Source: Caldilineales bacterium (GTDB lineage: Bacteria > Chloroflexota > Anaerolineae > J102). Taken from it: a DNA stretch of 42,155 nt. The DNA is taken from positions 1-42,155 of the forward strand of contig JAOADB010000005.1 in the NCBI GenBank assembly GCA_026417535.1. Direction: 5' to 3'. The stretch's first letter is position 1. Each line of letters opens with the position of its first letter. Below the pieces are notes generated by a model that searched no databases, was not told where the DNA came from, and saw only the letters and a program-made list of their open reading frames with translations. This document shows, in pieces, positions 31,053 to 40,556 of the stretch. Both the position numbers and the translations under genes were made by a program.

Positions 31053-31964
31053 TTATTCGTGGCGATAGATGGCGCGGAGTTCTTCCGGGGCTTGGGCGAC
31101 CTTGAGATGCGTCAAAACGGCCCGCAGCAGGCCGACATCCTGGATGGCGGTGATTTCGGGCAATAGCCGCAGACCCGCAGCGCCAAAGCGTAATTCCAGG
31201 CCCACGGCAATGGCTTCCAGTAACCCGGTGCGCAGGCCCTCTTGCAGGCCCTTCGCCAGGCCTTCCTGCAGGCCCTTCGCCAGGCCCTCCTGGAGGCCCT
31301 TTTCCAGGCCCTCTTGCAGGCCTTCTTCCTTGATCATCTGATAGGCGTAGGATTCGACCATGATGTCCCTCCGTTTGGCGAACAGTTGGGCAGACAGTTG
31401 GCGTGAAACCAGACCCGACATAATGGCCAGGACGGTCAACATGTCCACCTTGTCGTCTCGTGGCAACTCGCTCTCGTAGAGCAAGCGGTCGGCCTGTTCG
31501 GCCCAGCGCAGGCCATCTCGCATGAGCGGCACGAGGGGTAACAAACACACCACGCCCTCGGCGATGATGGCCGCAGCGTCGAGTTCGTAGACCTTGATGA
31601 GCTGAAAGCGATAAGTGACCTCGTTGTCCTGATAGAAATCAACGGCCGCTTGCGAAGGCCGCAACAGGAGCACACCGCTCAGGGTTTCCTCGTCATGGAG
31701 GATTTTGTAGCGGGTGCGGTATTCCAGAAGCCGCAGGGGCAGCAGGGGGTCCCATTTGCTCTGGAGTTCGAGCACAACGAGGAAGCGTTGCCCGTCCTCG
31801 GTGTGCACCAGGAGGGGATAATCGCTGCGGCGGAGGGTAGTGGTCTCCTGGGGCAGCAGTTCGAGGACGGTGCCGGCGGTGACGGGGATGCCGAAGAAAC
31901 GGCGGAGGATTTTGCTGCTGCAGCGGGCGAGGAGCACCTTGGCAGCGATGTCGTAGGGTGTCAT
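31053..31964 (-). CDS. Rpn-family recombination-promoting nuclease / putative transposase (PD-(D/E)XK N-domain + DUF4351-like C-domain), 303 aa
   Basis: Contains RSDYPLLVHTEDGQRFLVVLELQSKWDPLLPLRLLEY (D...E-x-Q-x-K nuclease core), a C-terminal (QEGLxKGL)x4 repeat and LLRAVL...APEEL. From memory this matches the YhgA/Rpn family. Confidence 0.7.
   Translation of the reverse strand: MTPYDIAAKVLLARCSSKILRRFFGIPVTAGTVLELLPQETTTLRRSDYPLLVHTEDGQRFLVVLELQSKWDPLLPLRLLEYRTRYKILHDEETLSGVLLLRPSQAAVDFYQDNEVTYRFQLIKVYELDAAAIIAEGVVCLLPLVPLMRDGLRWAEQADRLLYESELPRDDKVDMLTVLAIMSGLVSRQLSAQLFAKRRDIMVESYAYQMIKEEGLQEGLEKGLQEGLAKGLQEGLAKGLQEGLRTGLLEAIAVGLELRFGAAGLRLLPEITAIQDVGLLRAVLTHLKVAQAPEELRAIYRHE
31236..31331. 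repeat. Four imperfect 24-nt tandem repeats inside the Rpn gene (encode QEGLxKGL units)
   Basis: The units are GCCCTCTTGCAGGCCCTTCGCCAG / GCCTTCCTGCAGGCCCTTCGCCAG / GCCCTCCTGGAGGCCCTTTTCCAG / GCCCTCTTGCAGGCCTTCTTCCTT. Confidence 0.9.
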
Positions 31965-32179: not shown

Positions 32180-35100
32180 CTACATGTCAAACAGGCTGAG
32201 CTGCTCGGCGACCGGCCGCGAGGGCGGCCGTGAGGGGCGGTCGTCGCGTTCGAGCTGCTTGAGCGCGGCGGCGATGTCGTCGAGAAAGCGGCTGGGTTGG
32301 GGGCGGAGCTGTTGGCCGAAGAGAAAACGGCTGCGGGCGTAGGTGAGGATAAGCCGACGCCGGGCCCGCGTCATGCCGACGTAAAAGAGCCGCCGTTCCT
32401 CGGCTACATCGGTCGTCTTGCCCTCGCGGAGGTAGGGCAAAAGACCCTCTTCGCAGCCGACGATGAACACGACAGGAAACTCCAGACCCTTGGCCGCATG
32501 GAGCGTCATCAGCGCGACTCGGTCGGCGCGCGGGTCGTAGGCATCGGCCTCGGTGTACAGGGCCATCGCTTCCAGAAAGGCCTGCGGGTCGGCGCCGAAA
32601 TCCAGGCTGCGACGGACAAGCTGTTGTAACCGCTCTCGATCGGCGGCGCTCAACCGTCCCCGGTCCAGGTCGGCGGCAATCCGCTCCAACAATCCGGCCA
32701 CCGGCGCCGGGTCGGGACGCGCGGCGTCTCGCTCGAGTCGTCGTAGCCGTTCCAGGGCCTCTTGTACGACCCGATAGGCCGTCAGCGGCGTTTGACCCAC
32801 CACCTGATAGGGGAAACCTGCCCGCTCGAATGCCTCGACTAAGGCCTGGTTCTGCCCGTGCACGCGATAGAGCACGGCGAAATCGGCAAAACCCTGCGCC
32901 GTGGCCTCGTGACCGGTGGCCCGACCCGAATCGAGGGCAAAGTAGCTGCTCCCGCCCAGCATCCCCTCGATCTGGCGGACGACGAACTCGGCCTCGGCTC
33001 GCTCTGTGGCAGCCGCGTGGACGGTCACCCGCACCGCATCGGTGAACTCCGACCACAACCGCGGCGACTGCCAGGGCGCCTCGCGGGCGATGACCTGGCC
33101 GGCGGCATCGAGAATGAGCTGGGTAGAGCGGTAATTCTGCTCCAGGACGAGCTGCCGTGCCTGTGGATAGTCCTCGGTGAAACGAAGGAAATAGCGATGG
33201 TCGGCCCCGCGAAAGCCGTAAATGGCCTGATTGGGGTCGCCGATGACGCACAGATTGGCGCCATCGGCCGTCAGCAGCCGCAACAGCCGGTATTGGGCCA
33301 GGTTGATATCCTGGTACTCGTCCACGGCGATCCAGCGATAGCGCGCCTGCAAGGCTGCCAGCACATCGGGGTGTTCCTCCAACAGTCGCACGGTCAGGAA
33401 AACCAGATCGTCGAAATCCACGGCCCCGTGCCGGCGCAATTCGGCTTGATAGTCCCGATAGGCCGCCATGAAATCGGGATCGGCGGCAAAGCCCACCTCT
33501 TCGGATCCCGTCGTCGCTCCCGCTTCAGGGGACACGAGGCGATTCTTGGCCACGGTGATTTGCTCCAACAGGGCCGCAACGGCTTCGGCCGAGCGATCGG
33601 GTCGACAACGGGTCAGCCATTCCCGACGCTCATCCTCCGTCAGAATGACGAAATGCGGGTCCAGACCGACAAGGGCCGCCCATTGCCGCAGGACTTGGGC
33701 GCCAAAGGCATGGAAGGTCTTGATGGTCAGTCGCGCCGTTGTCTCGGCGCCGAGCAAGGCCGTTAGCCGCGTGGCCATTTCTCCGGCCGCCTTGTTCGTA
33801 AACGTGATGGCCAGGATGGACTCGGGCGCCACGCCCAGAACCCGCACCAGGTAGGCGATGCGGGTGGTGAGGGTGCGGGTTTTGCCCGTGCCGGGGCCGG
33901 CCACGATGACCAGCGGCCGGTCCGTGCAGAGCACGGATTCGCGTTGGGCCGGGTTGAGGCCCGCCAGCAGGTCATCGGCGACCGGCGGCGTTGGCCATGG
34001 GAAGCCCGGTTGAGAAGGCGATATGACCGGCGCAACCGTCGGCCGCAGCGTTGGCACGGCCACAGGCGCCTCGAAGCGCGGGGGCGGTTCCTGTACGGTC
34101 GGCGCGACCTCGTCGAACAAATCGGGTTGCCGAGGGCCGCTCTCGGCTTCTGCGGCGAAGACCCGGATGACCCCGTACTCGCCATCGTAGCCGGGGATGG
34201 TGGTCACCTCTCCGCGGCGCATACGGCCGATGCCGACGGCCAGCCTGTCGCCGCCGACGGCAGCGATGGCCTCCAGGGGCAGGTCGAGCAGAATGCTCAG
34301 CTCCGGGCCGAGGGTGGCCAGTAACCGCTCGTAGGCCTGCGCCACGACCTTGCCGCCGCCGACGCCGTGGAGCTCGGCCAGCAACTCGGGCAGGGGGATC
34401 AGGCGGTAGTAGGGCGCGGCTCCGGGCTTGGGTTCCCCTTCGGGCCGGTCGGCCAGGGTTTCGACCCGGTGATAGACGCCCACCGTGACCGGTTTGCCGC
34501 AGACAGGACAAAGGCCCCCGTGGGCCAGGGTCGTGGCCGGTTCCCAACGCACCCCGCATTGGCGATGGCCGTCGTAGTGGTATTTGCCTTCTTCCGGGAA
34601 AAACTCGATGGTGCCGCCGAAGCAGGTCGGGTCGGCGCGACGCATGGCCACGAAGATGGCATCGTAGCTCAGCTCGCCTGTGAACAGGGTGGCCTCGCGA
34701 CCCAGTTTGGCCGGCGAGTGGGCATCCGAATTCGAAACCAGGGTATAGCGGTCCAGCCCGGACACGCGCCAGTTCATGGGCGGATCGGAACTGAGGCCGG
34801 TCTCCAGGGCGAAGATGTGGCCTGTCAGGTCGCCGAAGCATTCTTCCACGCTGTCGTAGCCCGACATCGAACCGAGTAGGGCGAACCAGGGCGTCCAGAT
34901 GTGGGCCGGGATAAGATGGCAGCGCGGGTCTAGCTCCAGCAGGATCTCGAGCAGGTCGCGCGAAGGCAGGCCCAGGATGGGGCGTCCATCGCTGCGGATG
35001 TTGCCGATCCGTTCCAATCGCGCCTGCAGACGGCCCACCGTGACCAGGTCAGGTGCAAAAACGATATGGTGCACCTTGCGCGTCTTGCCGGCCTTTTTGT

Positions 35101-35392
35101 AGATGGTGCTGATCTCGCCGGCCAGGAGGAAACGGACCTCGCCTCGACAGGCCGGCGGCACCTGCGCGGCCACGATCCGGGCCAGATCGGGCTTGAGCCG
35201 ATACAACCCCGCCTCGGCCGGTTCCAGTTGGTCTTGCAGCTCTTGCAACCAGCCGGGATGGGTGATGTCGCCAGTGCCGACGACGTGCACGCCCTTGAGC
35301 TGGGCCCAGCGGGCCAGCTCGGGCAGGGTCAGGTCTTTGCTGGTGGCGCGGGAGTAGTGAGAGTGGATGTGCAGGTCGGCGACGAAGCGCAT
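32180..35392 (-). CDS. Fusion protein: N-terminal endonuclease-Q-like PHP nuclease (~aa 1-412) + Pro-rich linker + C-terminal UvrD/PcrA-type SF1 helicase (~aa 473-1070)
   Basis: The N-domain has MRFVADLHIHSHYSRATS, VHHIVFAP, IPAHIWTPWF, NSDAHSP and a Cys cluster (HRQCG...GGLCPVCGKP). The helicase part has AGPGTGKTRT (I), ILAITFTNKAAGEM (Ia), IAVDEYQDIN (II), VIGDPNQAIYGFRGAD (III), EQNYRST (IV), LMTLHAAKGLEFPVVFIV and RRLFYVGMTRARRRL (V/VI). ATG 35392 lies 7 nt after the regulator stop. Confidence 0.85.
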   Translation of the reverse strand: MRFVADLHIHSHYSRATSKDLTLPELARWAQLKGVHVVGTGDITHPGWLQELQDQLEPAEAGLYRLKPDLARIVAAQVPPACRGEVRFLLAGEISTIYKKAGKTRKVHHIVFAPDLVTVGRLQARLERIGNIRSDGRPILGLPSRDLLEILLELDPRCHLIPAHIWTPWFALLGSMSGYDSVEECFGDLTGHIFALETGLSSDPPMNWRVSGLDRYTLVSNSDAHSPAKLGREATLFTGELSYDAIFVAMRRADPTCFGGTIEFFPEEGKYHYDGHRQCGVRWEPATTLAHGGLCPVCGKPVTVGVYHRVETLADRPEGEPKPGAAPYYRLIPLPELLAELHGVGGGKVVAQAYERLLATLGPELSILLDLPLEAIAAVGGDRLAVGIGRMRRGEVTTIPGYDGEYGVIRVFAAEAESGPRQPDLFDEVAPTVQEPPPRFEAPVAVPTLRPTVAPVISPSQPGFPWPTPPVADDLLAGLNPAQRESVLCTDRPLVIVAGPGTGKTRTLTTRIAYLVRVLGVAPESILAITFTNKAAGEMATRLTALLGAETTARLTIKTFHAFGAQVLRQWAALVGLDPHFVILTEDERREWLTRCRPDRSAEAVAALLEQITVAKNRLVSPEAGATTGSEEVGFAADPDFMAAYRDYQAELRRHGAVDFDDLVFLTVRLLEEHPDVLAALQARYRWIAVDEYQDINLAQYRLLRLLTADGANLCVIGDPNQAIYGFRGADHRYFLRFTEDYPQARQLVLEQNYRSTQLILDAAGQVIAREAPWQSPRLWSEFTDAVRVTVHAAATERAEAEFVVRQIEGMLGGSSYFALDSGRATGHEATAQGFADFAVLYRVHGQNQALVEAFERAGFPYQVVGQTPLTAYRVVQEALERLRRLERDAARPDPAPVAGLLERIAADLDRGRLSAADRERLQQLVRRSLDFGADPQAFLEAMALYTEADAYDPRADRVALMTLHAAKGLEFPVVFIVGCEEGLLPYLREGKTTDVAEERRLFYVGMTRARRRLILTYARSRFLFGQQLRPQPSRFLDDIAAALKQLERDDRPSRPPSRPVAEQLSLFDM

Positions 35393-35399
35393 TGTGGGG

Positions 35400-36071
35400 T
35401 CAGGGGGTATTGTCGGAGGCAAGCAGGCCCAATTCGCGCGCCCGCAGGGCAGCTTGGGTGCGATCACGGGCGCCGATCTTGTTCAGGATGTTGGTGACGT
35501 AGTTTTTGACTGTGCCTTCGGCCAGGTACAGACGTTCGGCGATCTCGCGGTTGGTCAGGCCTTCGGCCAGCAACCGCAGCACCTCGTGCTCGCGTTCGGA
35601 CAGGGGTTCGGGCAACCGCGCTGGTGAGGATGGCGTCGGTCGCAAGCGGGCCAGCTCGGCCACGACCTTACGCGCGACCGACGGTTCGATGAGCACGCCC
35701 CCGGCCATGACGGTGCGGATAGCCTCGACCAGGTCGTGGACGGACACGTCCTTGAGCAGATAACCCAGCGCGCCCCCGCGCAGACCCTCGAACACGTACT
35801 CATCGTCGTCGAAGGTGGTCAGGATGATGACGCGGGCGCCCGGAAAACGGCCGATGAGCCGTCGGGTGGCTTCAACCCCGTCCATCACCGGCATACGCAC
35901 GTCCATCAGCACCACATCGGGCCGGAGTCGTTCGTAGGCGGTCAGCGCTTCCTCGCCGTTGCCGGCCTCGCCGACCACCTCCACGCCCGGTTCCAGCTCG
36001 AGCAGGGTGCGCAAGCCCTCGCGCATCAACCGCTGATCGTCCACCAGCAACACGCGGATGGTTTCAGGCAT
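35400..36071 (-). CDS. NarL/LuxR-family response regulator (REC + HTH), 223 aa
   Basis: Contains IRVLLVDDQRLMREGL...PDVVLMDVRMPVMDG (REC domain) and LSEREHEVLRLLAEGLTNREIAERLYLAEGTVKNYVTNIL (LuxR HTH). Its ATG overlaps the kinase stop (ATGCCTGA). Confidence 0.92.
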   Translation of the reverse strand: MPETIRVLLVDDQRLMREGLRTLLELEPGVEVVGEAGNGEEALTAYERLRPDVVLMDVRMPVMDGVEATRRLIGRFPGARVIILTTFDDDEYVFEGLRGGALGYLLKDVSVHDLVEAIRTVMAGGVLIEPSVARKVVAELARLRPTPSSPARLPEPLSEREHEVLRLLAEGLTNREIAERLYLAEGTVKNYVTNILNKIGARDRTQAALRARELGLLASDNTP

Positions 36072-37269
36072 GGTCCACCTCCGGCGGCAAGGGCAGGGTC
36101 ATCACGAGTTCGGCGCCGCCTTGGGGCCGCGGCCTTAGGTCCACGCTGCCGCCCAGATACTCGGCCCGCTCGCGTAGCCCGTGTAAACCGAAACCGCCAC
36201 CGGTGGCGTTTGGCCGCGGTCCCCGGCCGTCATCGGCCACGCTCAGGCTCACCCGATCGGTGCTCACGGCCAGCGTCAGCCAGACGTGGGTGGCGGCGGC
36301 GTGTTTTTGCACGTTGGTCAGCCCTTCCTGAGCGGCCCGGTAGAGGGCCAGGCGATGGGTGGCCGGCAGGTCCGGGAGGTCCGGCGGTAGGTTCAAGGTC
36401 ACTGCCAGACCTGTTGCCGTCTCGAATTCGGCCGCCAGACGGCGCAAGGCCGGTTCCAGCGGCAGGTCGGCCTCCAGCGGCGCCCGCAGCGCAGCCACGG
36501 TCTGGCGCAATTCGGTCAGGGCCGTGCGGATTTCCTCACGGGCGGCCGCGGCCATGCTCGCGGCCCGTTCGGGGTCGGTTGCGGCCAGCCGGGTGATGGC
36601 CTCCAGCTGTACGGCCACTACGGTCAGGCGATGACCCAGGGTATCGTGCATCTCGCGGGCTAGGCGATTGCGTTCCTCGGCCACAGCCAGGGCCTCGGCC
36701 TGGGCGGCGTAGGCCTGGAGACGGGTGTGGGCCTCTTGCAGTTCCTGCAGCAGGCGGCGACTCTCGGCCTGAGCGGCGTCGGCCAAGGCCGTTTGGGTAG
36801 CAAAGGCAGCGAAGAAGAAGTAGCCAGCGATGTAGATGAGCGCCGTCGCCAGGATGCCCAACAAACCGCCGCTCATGACCCAGAAGAGAATGACGGTGAC
36901 GGCGGCAAAGACACCCACCCAGGCATAACCGGTCTGCCGGGGGAAGCGCAGCATGACTTCCGGGCTGAGGACGAAGAAGAGGACGGCAAACCAGGGATTG
37001 GCCGGCGGCAGCACGATGAGGGCGCTGGTCAGGGTCGTGGCCAGGGCGACGTAGAGGTGGGGCGCCCGAACCTTGAAGCCGCCCAAGGCCCGGTCGGGCA
37101 AGAGGACGAGCAGGTCGAAGGCGGCCAGCAGCGCCAACCCTGCCCAGCGCAACGGCCGTCCGGGTTCCAGGAACACGACCAGGCCCAGCACCGTGATGGC
37201 GGCGATGACCACATAGACGCTGAGCAGGGCCGGTTCGATGCGCCGGGAGGAGGGGGTGAGGACGGGCAT
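36064..37269 (-). CDS. Sensor histidine kinase, HisKA_3 type (DesK/LiaS-like), multi-TM N-terminus, 401 aa
   Basis: The N-terminal ~160 aa are hydrophobic helices. These are followed by ERNRLAREMHDTLGHRL (H-box), QEGLTNVQKHA (N-box), DDGRG and GGGFGLHGLRERAEYLGG (G-boxes). Start at ATG 37269 (MPVLTPSS). Confidence 0.9.
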   Translation of the reverse strand: MPVLTPSSRRIEPALLSVYVVIAAITVLGLVVFLEPGRPLRWAGLALLAAFDLLVLLPDRALGGFKVRAPHLYVALATTLTSALIVLPPANPWFAVLFFVLSPEVMLRFPRQTGYAWVGVFAAVTVILFWVMSGGLLGILATALIYIAGYFFFAAFATQTALADAAQAESRRLLQELQEAHTRLQAYAAQAEALAVAEERNRLAREMHDTLGHRLTVVAVQLEAITRLAATDPERAASMAAAAREEIRTALTELRQTVAALRAPLEADLPLEPALRRLAAEFETATGLAVTLNLPPDLPDLPATHRLALYRAAQEGLTNVQKHAAATHVWLTLAVSTDRVSLSVADDGRGPRPNATGGGFGLHGLRERAEYLGGSVDLRPRPQGGAELVMTLPLPPEVDHA

Positions 37270-37275
37270 AGGTCT

Positions 37276-37281
37276 ATGATA
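37276..37281 (-). promoter_or_regulatory. -10-like hexamer TATCAT 6 nt upstream of the kinase ATG (possible internal, leaderless promoter)
   Basis: The minus strand reads TATCAT-AGACCT-ATG. The -35 is poor (TGGGAA), so confidence is low. Confidence 0.3.
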
Positions 37282-37338
37282 CTCCAGGTTGCGTCCTTTT
37301 CCCACCGGTTGGCAGAGTGGAGAAAACGGGACCAACAA

Positions 37339-37379
37339 CGAAGGACGGACGACGAAGCCCATCCGTCGTCCGTCCTTCG
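37339..37379. repeat. GACG-rich hairpin (16-bp perfect stem, 9-nt loop) between the membrane-protein gene and the kinase gene
   Basis: 37339-37354 CGAAGGACGGACGACG is the reverse complement of 37364-37379 CGTCGTCCGTCCTTCG. Confidence 0.9.
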
Positions 37380-37412
37380 CTCGACTTGAATCCGAAAGAC
37401 CGGGCCCTGTCT

Positions 37413-37931
37413 TCAGGAGCGGCGCCGCCAGAGGATCCAAAGCCCCAGGACGATGAGGATCGCAGGCCAGGCGTAGCCGATGATTTCCAGGATGCGGACG
37501 CCGGTCTCGCCGGCCAGGAGCAAACCGCCGATGACGGCCAGGATGCCGCCGGGGATGAGGGGCCACCATTGGGGTGTGTCGGCCGTGATCAGCGAGAGGA
37601 GGGCAATCAGGCCCCAGCCGGCGGCAAAGGAGAGCATGAAGACGGCGCCTTGCAGCGGTTCGGCGGCGTTGGCCAGTGGGCCTTGGAGCAGACCGATGCC
37701 CAGGCCAATGCCGGCAAGAATGCCGCCGGGGATGATCAGGCCGAAGGTGCGGGTGGCCAATCCCCAAATCAGGAACAAAGCGCCGAGGGCCGGCAGAAAG
37801 AGAAAGCCGAGGTTTTCCAGAAGCCCGAGTTGGGCCAGCAAGGCCAGAACGCCAATGCCAATGAGAATGATGCCGCCAATCAGGGCGGGCCGGTGCTGCG
37901 AGCGGTTGGGGGTGAGCGGTTGCGAGTTCAT
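37413..37931 (-). CDS. Small polytopic membrane protein with internal duplication (LiaI/LiaF-TM-like by resemblance), 172 aa
   Basis: Two similar halves: ALIGGIILIGIGVLALLAQLG...ALFLIWGL and PLIPGGILAVIGGLLLAGETG...ILIVLGLWILW. GGAGG lies 5 nt upstream of ATG 37931. The family call is tentative. Confidence 0.6.
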   Translation of the reverse strand: MNSQPLTPNRSQHRPALIGGIILIGIGVLALLAQLGLLENLGFLFLPALGALFLIWGLATRTFGLIIPGGILAGIGLGIGLLQGPLANAAEPLQGAVFMLSFAAGWGLIALLSLITADTPQWWPLIPGGILAVIGGLLLAGETGVRILEIIGYAWPAILIVLGLWILWRRRS

Positions 37932-37945
37932 GGTTTCCTCCGGGT

Positions 37946-37975
37946 GGTTTGTAACGGGTCAGGTTTTGTAACCTG
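37946..37975 (-). promoter_or_regulatory. Direct repeat GGTTTGTAAC / GGTTTTGTAAC plus inverted repeat CAGGTT-n4-AACCTG just upstream of the membrane-protein gene; candidate operator
   Basis: The direct repeats lie at 37946-37955 and 37962-37972 and the inverted repeat at 37960-37975, 15-45 nt upstream of ATG 37931. Confidence 0.3.
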
Positions 37976-38023
37976 TCACTTTCCAGCATAGCGCCCGGAG
38001 GTCACATGCACCAGTGCCGAAAG

Positions 38024-39059: not shown

Positions 39060-40556
39060 ATGACCGCCTCCGTGTGTCCGTATCTGGGTTTGCTGGATGA
39101 TCCGGCTACCCATCTCAACTACCCCAGTTTCGAGAACCGCTGCTACGCTACGGTGGCGCGCGAGGCGATCCCGCTTTCCGAACAGGCCGTTTTCTGTCTA
39201 GGGGGACAACACACCGGCTGCCCGCGCTACATGGCCCTCCACGGCGCGCCGGCTGCGGCCGCCACGGCGCCTTTGCCGCCACCACCGATGGCGGCACCAT
39301 CGCCGACGGCGGGACCCGTCGGGTTTGCGCCTGCCTACGGGATGGGGCCGGGTCGCGATCGCTCCCTGGCCATCATCCTCGGCGGTATCCTTCTGGGCAT
39401 CTTCCTGTGCAGCGGTCTTTTGGCCGTTTATCTGAGCTGGCGGGCGCTGTTGGCCACGGCCTTGCCGCCCACACCCACGACGGCGCCGGTTGTCGTCGCG
39501 ACACCCACGCCCACGGCTGCCGTCATCGTCGTCGTGACGGCCACGCCTACCCCGACCGAAACGCTGCAGCCGGCCGACTCCATACCGCCTGCAACCGACA
39601 CGCCGACGCCGTTCCTGCCCACCGATACACCGATCCCTCCGCCCTTCCCCACCGACACGCCAACGCCTCCGTTTTTGCTGCCCACGGACACGCCGGAACC
39701 GGAGGAAACGCCGTTCCCGCCCACGCCGACGCCGCGGCCGTCGCCCACCATGACCCCGATTCCGGGGACGCCTACTTTTACTCCCACCGTCACGCCGACC
39801 TTCACGCCGAGCGGTCTCATCATCAATTTCACCGTGTCCAAGACGAGTATCGAACTTGGCCAGTGCGTGGTGCTGGCCTGGGATGTGCGCAACGCTCGCG
39901 AGGTGCGATTGGACAACGTAGTCGTTGCCGCTCTGGGGAGCCGGCAGGATTGTCCGACTAAGACGACCATCTACGAACTGCTCGTGGTCAGTCTGACCGG
40001 CGCCACGGAAAAACGCACCCTGACCGTGACCGTCCTGACGGGCACGCCTTCGCCCACACCCACTTTCACCGTTTCGCCCACGCCTTGGCCCACGGCCACG
40101 CCCACGCCTACGGCCACGCCCACCCTGACCAAGACGCCCACCCCTACGCCCACGCGCACGCCTACACCCACGCCGACGGCCACGTTTATCCCCACGCCCA
40201 CCCCGACCCGCGTCTTTGTGGATTGGGGCGCTGCACCCGAGTCCTACGACGGTCCCGGCCCCCATGTCACCATCATCCTGACCAACCGGGGCAACTCGGA
40301 CGACGGCATGGGCGTACGCTTGACCGTTCAGAACCTGCCCGCCGGCTGGCAGGTTGTCGTCTGCAACGGCGCCGGCAGTTGCGACGCCTTTCAAGTGAAC
40401 ACGTCGTGGTTGCCGCCGGGCCTGGCCGAGGCCGTGACGGTCCGTTTTACGATACCGCCGGAAGCCACCGATGTCACGGCTACGGTGACGGTGCAGGCCT
40501 GGTCGTTGCGCGATGGCTCGTTCCGACTGTCTATCCCCGTTACCGTCCGTCGTTAG
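39060..40556 (+). CDS. Single-pass membrane protein: cytoplasmic Cys/His-rich (Zn-ribbon-like) N-domain, TM helix, Pro/Thr-rich linkers, Ig-like and CARDB-like extracellular domains (498 aa)
   Basis: The N-domain reads CPYLGLLDDPATHLNYPSFENRCY...FCLGGQHTGCPRY. The TM helix is LAIILGGILLGIFLCSGLLAVYL. Long (TP)n tracts follow. The beta-rich modules are IINFTVSKTSIELGQCVVLAWDVRNAREVRL and HVTIILTNRGNSDD...VTVRFTIPPEA. Confidence 0.75.
   Translation: MTASVCPYLGLLDDPATHLNYPSFENRCYATVAREAIPLSEQAVFCLGGQHTGCPRYMALHGAPAAAATAPLPPPPMAAPSPTAGPVGFAPAYGMGPGRDRSLAIILGGILLGIFLCSGLLAVYLSWRALLATALPPTPTTAPVVVATPTPTAAVIVVVTATPTPTETLQPADSIPPATDTPTPFLPTDTPIPPPFPTDTPTPPFLLPTDTPEPEETPFPPTPTPRPSPTMTPIPGTPTFTPTVTPTFTPSGLIINFTVSKTSIELGQCVVLAWDVRNAREVRLDNVVVAALGSRQDCPTKTTIYELLVVSLTGATEKRTLTVTVLTGTPSPTPTFTVSPTPWPTATPTPTATPTLTKTPTPTPTRTPTPTPTATFIPTPTPTRVFVDWGAAPESYDGPGPHVTIILTNRGNSDDGMGVRLTVQNLPAGWQVVVCNGAGSCDAFQVNTSWLPPGLAEAVTVRFTIPPEATDVTATVTVQAWSLRDGSFRLSIPVTVRR

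Follow-up and report, generated by a model that had tools for sequence, protein, structure and literature searches.

Introduction

Endonuclease Q (EndoQ) nicks DNA on the 5′ side of deaminated and abasic nucleotides. Published work describes it as an enzyme of archaea, with "a few" homologues on the bacterial side, in Bacillus and Desulfovibrio (PMC8438529, PMC5961232). The archaeal enzyme carries a disordered C-terminal PCNA-interacting peptide (PIP box) through which it binds PCNA, and its cleavage is stimulated by PCNA (PMC5961232), while the Bacillus-type enzymes of B. pumilus and B. subtilis have been shown experimentally to nick DNA at deoxyuridine (dU), deoxyinosine (dI) and apurinic/apyrimidinic (AP) sites (PMC5961232, PMC6202378). 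A helicase step following the nick was proposed by the discoverers of EndoQ (PMC4357722). The present study concerns a gene in a 42,155-nucleotide stretch of DNA from a Caldilineales bacterium of the phylum Chloroflexota (assembly GCA_026417535.1, contig JAOADB010000005.1, positions 1 to 42,155; hereafter the window), which encodes an EndoQ module and a UvrD/PcrA-like helicase in a single polypeptide.

From its domains, conserved residues and short motifs, the gene probably encodes a clamp-tethered nick-and-unwind repair enzyme, that is, a bacterial form of EndoQ alternative excision with a built-in downstream helicase. The evidence consists of the integrity of the fusion, the retention of the catalytic and lesion-pocket residues of EndoQ, a complete set of helicase motifs, candidate motifs for binding the β sliding clamp at two places in the protein, and the recurrence of the same pair of domains across a bacterial clade with members in at least 598 species-representative genomes.

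A Single Fused Polypeptide

The gene lies on the minus strand of the window at 32180..35392, with its stop codon at 32180-32182, and all protein features given below are on this strand, about which the preliminary description of this DNA was silent. It is one unbroken open reading frame (ORF) with an ATG start with MRFVADLHIHSHYS, and encodes 1070 amino acids (aa) in the order EndoQ module, linker, UvrD-like helicase and clamp motif. An alternative, longer reading from a GTG at 35467 would run into the upstream response regulator gene; because all homologues begin at MxxxADLHIHSHYS, the ATG is taken to be the real start.

A fusion of this kind could be an artefact of assembly error, frameshift or read-through, or could represent a housekeeping UvrD/PcrA that merely adjoins an EndoQ without being coupled to it. 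Frame errors or real fissions do occur, as a few loci have the two halves as overlapping or split ORFs. In an Anaerolineae metagenome-assembled genome (locus L009, 6001-9413), the EndoQ and helicase halves are ORFs that overlap by 88 nucleotides (nt), and in Micromonospora parastrephiae (locus L075) the fused ORF terminates early; either sequencing has introduced a frameshift in these two cases, or the gene has recently undergone fission or decay. The same 1070-aa protein is nevertheless intact in at least four independent assemblies of the same species as well as in the window, and the fused form is intact in 58 complete species-representative loci from more than 15 phyla, so that neither an assembly error nor a frameshift can account for it. 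Lengths of 1000-1250 aa also predominate among the 150 best cluster representatives in a database search. The helicase half itself looks like a specialised paralogue, lacking a Tudor domain and scoring 462 bits against a PcrA equivalog cutoff of 911, and where the helicase is encoded separately it still adjoins EndoQ and bears the same C-terminal motif. The artefactual or uncoupled explanation is thus so implausible as to be effectively refuted, and the claim of a single-polypeptide fusion in the preliminary description stands, as against the split gene that it had named as the alternative.

The EndoQ Module

Residues 1-417 (34142..35392) comprise predicted PHP catalytic, Zn-binding and C-terminal helical domains, as judged from TIGR00375, PfuEndoQ (Pyrococcus furiosus EndoQ) and Foldseek matches. 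The TIGR00375 match (E=1.5e-42) covers model positions 2-374 of 374, and a phmmer search of this half against the sequences of the Protein Data Bank (PDB) returned only P. furiosus EndoQ chains (5zb8, 7k30, and 7k31) at E~1e-55. Window residues 5-411 align with Pfu residues 5-382, with 35% identity over 414 residues, and the AlphaFold model of the module superimposes on 5zb8 with a target-normalised template modelling (TM) score of 0.83 and a root-mean-square deviation of 3.5 Å over 415 columns. All three approaches recover the three-domain EndoQ architecture, including the C-terminal helical domain, and the homologues bear a precomputed PF27218 (MJ0043_C) annotation.

The N-terminal motifs listed in the preliminary description are all present, namely DLHIHSH (6-12), VHHIVF (H108), PAHIWTPW (H164 and W169), NSDAHS (221-226) and HRQC...CPVC (276-298). 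PHP motif I, DLHIHSH (35357..35377), provides the metal ligands D6, H8 and H10, which align with Pfu D6, H8 and H10, and is kept in 238 of 241 relatives, the remaining three being gapped at this column. The SDAH motif formed by S222, D223, A224 and H225 (34718..34729) corresponds to Pfu S192, D193, A194 and H195, and D223 and H225 are invariant in 241/241 relatives. In the P. furiosus enzyme, the two zinc ions are bound by H8, H10, E76, H84, H139 and D193, plus H195, and D193 is essential for cleavage, since D193N abolishes activity (PMC5961232). The corresponding two-zinc ligand set in the window protein (H8, H10, E93, H108, H164, D223, and H225) is complete, and is essentially invariant among the 241 relatives.

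The lesion pocket is retained as well. The Pfu pocket and wedge residues E167, G169, S171 and W144 accept uracil and hypoxanthine and exclude thymine and adenine (PMC8307549, PMC5961232), and the residues that keep out normal thymine and adenine are H139, G169 and S171 (PMC8307549). Their counterparts E197, G199 and S201 are invariant in 241/241 relatives, and the wedge tryptophan W169 is present in 232 of the 241.

The cysteine cluster of the preliminary description is found at 276-298, as a putative Zn-binding site H276-x2-C279...C295-x2-C298 (34499..34567) aligned with Pfu C249, C252, C268 and C271, with four candidate ligands at homologous positions and a CPVCG sequence. The site is of the H-C-C-C type and not the four-cysteine type of the archaeal enzymes, and a histidine at the first position is chemically compatible with zinc binding. 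The H-x2-C...C-x2-C arrangement is a clean marker of the clade, the archaeal and Bacillus-type proteins having C-x2-C...C-x2-C. Taken together, the sequence comparisons identify residues 1-417 as a genuine full-length EndoQ-family module. The EndoQ/TIGR00375 layout named in the preliminary description is confirmed, with the Zn-binding and C-terminal helical domains present and the catalytic and lesion-pocket residues kept, and the alternative assignment to a PolX-type or histidinol-phosphatase-type PHP protein is ruled out by the full EndoQ match including the Zn-binding domain.

The Linker and the Helicase Half

The two halves are joined by a Pro-rich linker, disordered between residues 418 and 469 (33986..34141), where the predicted local distance difference test (pLDDT) score of the model is below 50. 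The linker of about 60 residues noted earlier was found to span 63 residues (413-475), 16 of them proline. Among homologues, the distance from the GYDGEYG anchor, at the end of the EndoQ module, to the Walker A motif varies from 56 to 213 residues.

Residues 470-1051 (32240..33985) form a superfamily 1A (SF1A) UvrD/PcrA-like helicase with predicted 1A, 1B and 2A domains and a small 2B domain. PF00580 is matched at E=7.8e-77 (259 bits, gathering cutoff 23) and PF13361 at E=5e-43 (148 bits, gathering cutoff 25.6), sequence matches in the PDB include PcrA 1pjr (E=9.5e-104) and Mycobacterium tuberculosis UvrD1 (E=1.3e-99), and Foldseek gives TM scores of 0.57-0.60 against SF1A structures. Motifs Q and I-VI are all present and invariant in 48 homologues, so that the complete SF1A helicase of the preliminary description is confirmed by Pfam matches, by PcrA similarity and by conservation. 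Walker A (motif I), GPGTGKT at residues 499-505 (33878..33898), has G499, P500, G501, G503, K504 and T505 invariant in these homologues, as are motif II, DEYQD at residues 691-695 (33308..33322), and the further motifs GDPNQAIYGFRGA, NYRS, HAAKGLEF and VGMTRAR.

The helicase departs from its housekeeping relatives in two regions. A reduced 2B-like helical insert at residues ~872-951 (32540..32779), for which four short helices are predicted, has a 2B region of ~53 residues compared with ~132 in PcrA (PcrA 401-533). A reduced 2B domain was considered as a hallmark of the family and rejected, as the spacing between motifs IV and V spans 133-343 residues: it is 212 in the window protein, 133-150 in compact split helicases, 267 (median) in fused proteins and ~275 in PcrA. 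At the C-terminus, the alignment with PcrA stops at PcrA residue 660 of 724, and in place of the PcrA/UvrD Tudor domain, the window protein has a disordered tail of residues 1052-1070 (32183..32239; pLDDT <50). All family members have ~103 residues between motif V and the C-terminus, and from the sequences the missing Tudor domain appears to be the only universal difference of the helicase half in the family. This absence escaped the preliminary description, as did the two clamp motifs described below.

Scores against the equivalog models also fall well short of their cutoffs, at 462 versus 911 bits for PcrA, 410 versus 951 for Rep and 346 versus 1144 for UvrD. By its scores, its reduced 2B domain and its lack of a Tudor domain, the helicase is not an orthologue of PcrA, UvrD or Rep, and the absence of the Tudor domain together with the low equivalog scores indicates that the fused helicase is a specialised paralogue.

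The AlphaFold model of the whole protein, with a predicted TM score (pTM) of 0.46, shows two folded modules connected by a flexible tether, and no interface between them is predicted with confidence. An interface between the EndoQ module and the helicase was considered as a feature of the protein, and is not claimed in view of this pTM value for a predicted model and the disordered linker.

Candidate Clamp-Binding Motifs

The bacterial β-clamp-binding consensus is QL[S/D]LF, or more generally QxxLF (PMC12309361), and the window protein, which terminates in ...AEQLSLFDM, matches it exactly with the candidate motif QLSLF at Q1064-F1068 (32189..32203). The motif lies within the tail with pLDDT <50, that is, in a segment predicted to be disordered and exposed. 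Of the 59 fused ORFs from species genomes that are complete, 56 have a Q[LM]x[LF][FLI] motif within their last eight residues, usually preceded by a basic segment; the same C-terminal motif occurs in 5 (0.7%) of the 694 unrelated ORFs of 200 aa or more at these loci. Across the 48 aligned sequences, Q1064 never varies and L1065 and L1067 hardly do, with the preceding tail being unconserved.

A second, internal clamp-binding-like motif, QPDLF (Q422-F426; 34115..34129), lies just past the EndoQ module, again in a segment with pLDDT <50. Its position is nearly fixed, as 153 of 199 fused proteins have a Qxx[LMF][FLW] motif after the GYDGEYG anchor at a median offset of 15 residues (interquartile range 14-15), against a chance rate of 10% in random 45-aa windows. 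When EndoQ stands alone, the protein ends at about this point, and 9 of 12 such proteins end in a QxxLF-type motif there, such as QLTLF, QMALF or QLALF. The second motif of the stand-alone EndoQs therefore appears to survive internally in the fused proteins. Separately encoded helicases in turn end in QLSLF, QMTLF, QMKLF or QLKLF.

Both motifs are predicted to be docking peptides for the β sliding clamp, and by analogy would be the bacterial parallel to the PIP box of archaeal EndoQ. The two QxxLF motifs of one protein might possibly occupy both pockets of a clamp dimer.

Distribution, Split Forms and Phylogeny

A pattern scan of one genome per species in GTDB found at least 598 matched stretches that encode a relative of the EndoQ module, distributed over more than 15 phyla, and the architecture was classified at 80 loci drawn from these species-representative matches. 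The 80 loci come from Chloroflexota, Actinomycetota (Micromonospora, Asanoa, Actinoallomurus, and Kutzneria), Myxococcota (Sorangium), Desulfobacterota (Desulfonema magnum), Planctomycetota, Gemmatimonadota, Bacteroidota, Alphaproteobacteria, Binatia, Latescibacterota, KSB1, Omnitrophota and Elusimicrobia, and also include one Moorellaceae bacterium and one bacterium of the candidate phyla radiation. Litorilinea aerophila (WP_141611175.1), Micromonospora, Sorangium and Desulfonema magnum are carriers that can be cultured.

Complete fusions account for 58 of the 80 loci, and a further nine leave the contig while still open into the helicase. The helicase is the next gene on the same strand in seven, one is split, and EndoQ occurs alone in five, only two of which have informative downstream sequence. 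The fusion is thus the dominant form of the bacterial EndoQ clade, and the rarity implied by the preliminary description is not borne out. The best 120 relatives of the full protein in the database, most of which come from Caldilineae and Anaerolineae, are without exception 996-1243 aa long and share the same domain set, and an exhaustive HMMER search over 1.84 billion cluster representatives, from which the lengths of the best 150 were taken, returned 1,114 matches at E<=1e-30.

The split forms are informative about the relation between the halves. At the P0225 locus (L006/L007), the gene order is a 428-aa EndoQ, a small ORF and a 515-aa UvrD-like helicase, which aligns with window residues 469-871 and 948-1069 and so is without the 2B-like insert. 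The intervening ORF (L006 7295-7675; L007 2410-2748) encodes 112-126 aa with a hydrophobic N-terminus, and showed no similarity to the fusion linker or to anything else tested. The compact separate helicases are 483-515 aa long (L020, L023, L026, L027, L033 and L073, together with the 515-aa gene in L006), and that of L077 is longer, at 662 aa. The occurrence of the halves as adjacent separate genes in several phyla is a Rosetta-stone pattern, which strengthens the suggestion, made in the preliminary description, that the protein would be a nick-and-unwind repair machine.

In a rough neighbour-joining tree of the EndoQ domain, the helicase-associated clade lies well apart from the archaeal and Bacillus-type EndoQs on long branches. 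The tree broadly tracks taxonomy, with split and solo forms scattered among the fused ones in at least five places, which fits an old fusion with mainly vertical inheritance and occasional fission or loss.

Annotation of the family is uneven. Fused proteins are named "UvrD-helicase domain-containing protein", "DNA 3'-5' helicase" or "DNA helicase" in the databases, with the EndoQ half unnamed, and some stand-alone relatives are named "endonuclease Q family protein" by NCBI. NCBI gives the name "DNA helicase UvrD" to four stand-alone EndoQs of ~430 aa without a helicase domain (P0171, P0201, P0231, and P0232), which come from Sumerlaeota, Omnitrophica, Nitrospirae and KSB1, apparently by annotation transfer from fused relatives.

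Proposed Mechanism and a Possible Alternative Substrate

The proposed nick-and-unwind enzyme would act in three steps. By homology with characterised EndoQs, the EndoQ module would flip a deaminated or abasic nucleotide (dU, dI, deoxyxanthosine, or AP) into its pocket, and the zinc-loaded PHP site would cut immediately 5′ of the lesion, leaving a 3′-OH and a lesion-bearing 5′-phosphate. The tethered SF1A motor, of 3′-5′ polarity, would then load at the nick and unwind the DNA in an ATP-dependent manner, as the fusion and the gene adjacency suggest; most plausibly it would move on the intact strand, displacing the lesion strand so as to leave a 5′ flap or a gap. UvrD itself unwinds from repair nicks in nucleotide excision repair and mismatch repair. 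In the third step, the C-terminal QLSLF, and perhaps the internal QPDLF, may dock on the β clamp, by which the enzyme would be recruited to newly replicated DNA or stimulated there, and the 3′-OH would be passed on to a polymerase bound to the clamp. The repair would be completed by a flap nuclease and a ligase. More tentatively, the family as a whole may constitute a replication-coupled alternative excision pathway that is widespread in bacteria, in which one polypeptide on the β clamp nicks the DNA, strips the strand and hands over the primer end.

Several observations weigh against this proposal. The score of the EndoQ module against TIGR00375 (146.3 bits) is below the equivalog cutoff of 326.6, which marks a bacterial lineage distinct from the archaeal enzymes, and the first ligand of the Zn-binding site is histidine in 241/241 bacterial relatives, the other three being cysteine. 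Because no fixed interface is predicted by AlphaFold, coupling of the two modules would rest on tethering alone. Loaded on the strand that carries the nick, a 3′-5′ motor would travel away from the lesion, and the productive geometry is assumed. Finally, a short linear motif need not owe its conservation to clamp binding.

The divergence of the EndoQ module in particular raises the alternative that a protein of the same architecture acts on another substrate, such as embedded ribonucleotides, mismatches or stalled forks, and serves replication-coupled strand excision and not deamination repair. The clade is well separated on long branches, its identity being 35% with Pfu and 30% with the Bacillus type; the sub-cutoff TIGR00375 score and the altered HCCC Zn-binding site point in the same direction, and a clamp-binding nickase combined with a UvrD-type helicase works on the same principle as mismatch repair by MutL/UvrD and as NucS/EndoMS, which is clamp-bound. 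However, the T- and A-excluding pocket (Pfu H139, G169, and S171), E167 and the wedge tryptophan are kept, most of them invariantly in the 241 relatives. The Bacillus-type lineage, in its Brevibacillus representative, is moreover less similar to Pfu (32% identity) than is the window module (35%), and yet the Bacillus EndoQs keep the canonical dU/dI/AP specificity; as activity has been kept at about the same distance, the module of the window would be expected to nick 5′ of such lesions as well. Another substrate is accordingly regarded as unlikely, and repair of deaminated and abasic sites by the clamp-tethered fusion remains the preferred reading.

Genomic Context and the Question of Defence

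The genes surrounding the fusion appear, from their Pfam matches, to be ordinary housekeeping genes. Among 20 neighbours, those upstream are a HisKA_3 kinase and a LuxR-type response regulator, and the others include a PP2C phosphatase, an alcohol dehydrogenase, a DUF4013 protein, an M19 dipeptidase, a class-V aminotransferase, glycosyltransferases and Mrp antiporter subunits.

The preliminary description had also speculated that the protein might be an immunity protein of the nuclease-helicase type. Under this explanation, it would act against phages or plasmids in the manner of Gabija GajA/GajB, the EndoQ module nicking dU-containing or modified invading DNA and the helicase shredding or unwinding it. 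The helicase half does match the PADLOC models of GajB and of DRT helicases strongly (E down to 1.8e-90), but these matches reflect generic UvrD-family similarity, as the PcrA, Rep and UvrD models score higher. A possible role of bacterial EndoQ in antiviral defence has been raised in a review, in which the B. subtilis enzyme is described as insensitive to the phage inhibitor Ugi (PMC8307549), and toxin-antitoxin pairs and small HNH genes occur near the fusion in some genomes. On the other side, no defence genes were found by Pfam among the 20 neighbours, a GajA-like protein included, and PADLOC run on ten neighbours gave no defence partner and only two generic domain matches. A Gabija helicase would be accompanied in a defence locus by its cognate GajA, an OLD-family nuclease combining ATPase and TOPRIM domains, and the window gene is not. 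Each of the other genomes inspected has different neighbours, none is conserved over 87 loci, the tree of the N-terminal domain tracks taxonomy and lacks the patchy spread typical of defence genes, and the conserved β-clamp motifs point to the replication and repair machinery of the host.

Mobile elements tell the same story: the EndoQ module had no match in 50,697 phage records and a single distant match in 72,556 plasmid records, this being a Bacillus-type gene on a 733-kb Brevibacillus replicon. The immunity speculation is thus not borne out by neighbourhood, phage and plasmid records, phylogeny or motifs, and is judged very improbable. The variable neighbours, the lack of PADLOC partners, the near-absence from phages and plasmids and the taxonomy-tracking tree together suggest a housekeeping character, in keeping with the proposed repair function.

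Clustering of ORFs over the 87 loci found no conserved neighbour. The top clusters were shadow ORFs that overlap the target gene, and the first real cluster, a generic histidine-kinase family, was present at 13 of 87 loci, about chance level; a conserved operon partner was accordingly rejected. In the window, the response regulator (35400-36071) and the histidine kinase (36064-37989) lie directly upstream on the minus strand, their ORFs overlapping by 8 nt, and only 7 nt separate the stop codon of the regulator from the ATG of the fusion, which suggests co-transcription. The two-component arrangement is kept only in 98%-identical strains (L091-L093) and not at 64-65% identity; regulation of the fusion by this system was considered and set aside, as the arrangement is not conserved beyond near-identical strains and a promoter and terminator scan was indecisive. 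The 641-aa kinase ORF is probably overlong, since a near-identical strain has a 432-aa gene and a separate 172-aa gene upstream of it (gene calls L091 3462-3980 and 4031-5329).

Downstream of the fusion, a 303-aa minus-strand ORF (31053-31964) has C-terminal repeats of the GLQEGLAKGL type; it shows sub-threshold similarity to the Rpn family of recombination-promoting nucleases/putative transposases (TIGR01784, 18 bits) and repeat-driven matches to FliH models. A conserved downstream "DUF8196" block was considered and dropped, being common to L001 and L094 and unrelated to the downstream ORF of the window. On the plus strand, an ORF of 498 aa (39060-40556), which adjoins a SpoIIE/PP2C-type phosphatase gene and has the same length in a near-identical strain (L091 845-2341), had no Pfam or PADLOC match.

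Small stand-alone HNH genes of 133-141 aa, with no counterpart in the window, were observed 22 nt upstream of the fusion in a Caldilineales genome (L001 7554-7979; resembling the HNH domain of IscB/Cas9) and 3 kb downstream of it in a Caldilineaceae genome (L003 14231-14632). Their proximity to the fusion is probably coincidental. In Brevibacillus laterosporus (L090, NZ_CP011075.1, 4989-6170), the Bacillus-type EndoQ gene directly follows a NUDIX hydrolase gene, a pairing that may be functionally meaningful, for example in nucleotide-pool sanitation. The 733-kb Brevibacillus replicon is labelled a plasmid but carries the core genes spoIIM, xerD, fur and deoB.

Novelty and Implications

According to PMC5961232, EndoQ homologues were sorted into three families "based on the domain organization" by Shiraishi et al. 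2017 (Biosci Biotechnol Biochem 81:931). No paper on an EndoQ-helicase fusion was found in full-text searches of the literature, in agreement with the earlier claim that no fusion has been characterised; the family sorting of Shiraishi et al. may already mention helicase-fused homologues. The novelty of the fusion is accordingly provisional, as such a family is possibly on record there. The supplements of the 2015 and 2018 EndoQ papers contained nothing relevant, and the architecture is already visible in public domain annotation, as a combination of PF27218 and PF00580. What is new here are the clamp motifs at the C-terminus and behind the EndoQ module, and no paper on clamp motifs in bacterial EndoQ was found.

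If the proposed function is correct, it would answer a question that has been open since 2015, namely what acts downstream of the EndoQ nick. The steps past the nick have so far only been proposed, and the fusion makes the downstream half testable in one protein. The genomic evidence argues strongly that EndoQ has a helicase as its natural partner in the downstream step, and equally that clamp coupling is ancient and convergent, achieved through the PIP box and PCNA in archaea and, as predicted here, through QLSLF and the β clamp in bacteria. Glycosylase-independent removal of uracil and hypoxanthine may then exist in many bacteria, including Chloroflexota, Actinomycetota, Myxococcota, Planctomycetota and Desulfobacterota, and EndoQ-type repair would be no archaeal curiosity but a major pathway in bacteria, with at least 598 species from more than 15 phyla carrying it. 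The annotation of the family can be corrected as well, since the fused proteins are labelled only as helicases and some stand-alone EndoQs carry a helicase name.

Comparison with Known Systems

Gabija GajB and other defence-associated UvrD-like helicases also belong to the UvrD family and are strongly matched as PADLOC models; against solved GajB chains, the window protein gives a weak partial match (E~1e-12 over ~80 residues), and its gene has no GajA partner. The housekeeping helicases UvrD, PcrA and Rep share motifs I-VI and the 1A/1B/2A core with the helicase half, which has ~34% identity to PcrA. In contrast to these, the window helicase carries an N-terminal nuclease and a reduced 2B domain, and it has a basic tail with a clamp motif where PcrA and UvrD have the Tudor domain that binds RNA polymerase.

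AddA, RecB and AdnB, which appear as distant structural matches, likewise combine a UvrD-like SF1A motor and a nuclease in one polypeptide. There, a PD-(D/E)XK domain at the C-terminus serves as the nuclease and works on DNA ends as part of a multi-subunit complex, whereas the window protein has an N-terminal PHP/EndoQ nickase, lesion-specific by homology, and its gene stands alone. A likeness in logic, with no sequence relationship, is offered by the MutL endonuclease with UvrD and by NucS/EndoMS, in which a clamp-docked nickase acts before strand removal; NucS/EndoMS acts through the clamp, to go by the title of a paper cited in PMC8438529. These systems target mismatches and consist of separate proteins, while in the window protein the nickase and the motor are joined and the pocket looks lesion-specific.

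The Bacillus-type EndoQs are ~30% identical to the window module and form a separate deep branch in the tree. They are stand-alone proteins (393 aa in Brevibacillus) with a C4 Zn-binding site, encoded beside a NUDIX gene, and have neither an adjacent helicase nor a C-terminal QxxLF. The archaeal EndoQ of P. furiosus (PF1551; 5ZB8 and 7K30-7K33) has the same layout of PHP, Zn-binding and C-terminal helical domains as the window module. It differs in being a stand-alone protein of 424 aa without a helicase, in its C4 Zn-binding site, which is HCCC in the window protein, and in the type of its clamp peptide, a PIP box for PCNA as opposed to the bacterial QLSLF. Both proteins nevertheless carry a clamp-docking peptide, in the window protein a predicted one, on a disordered C-terminal extension.

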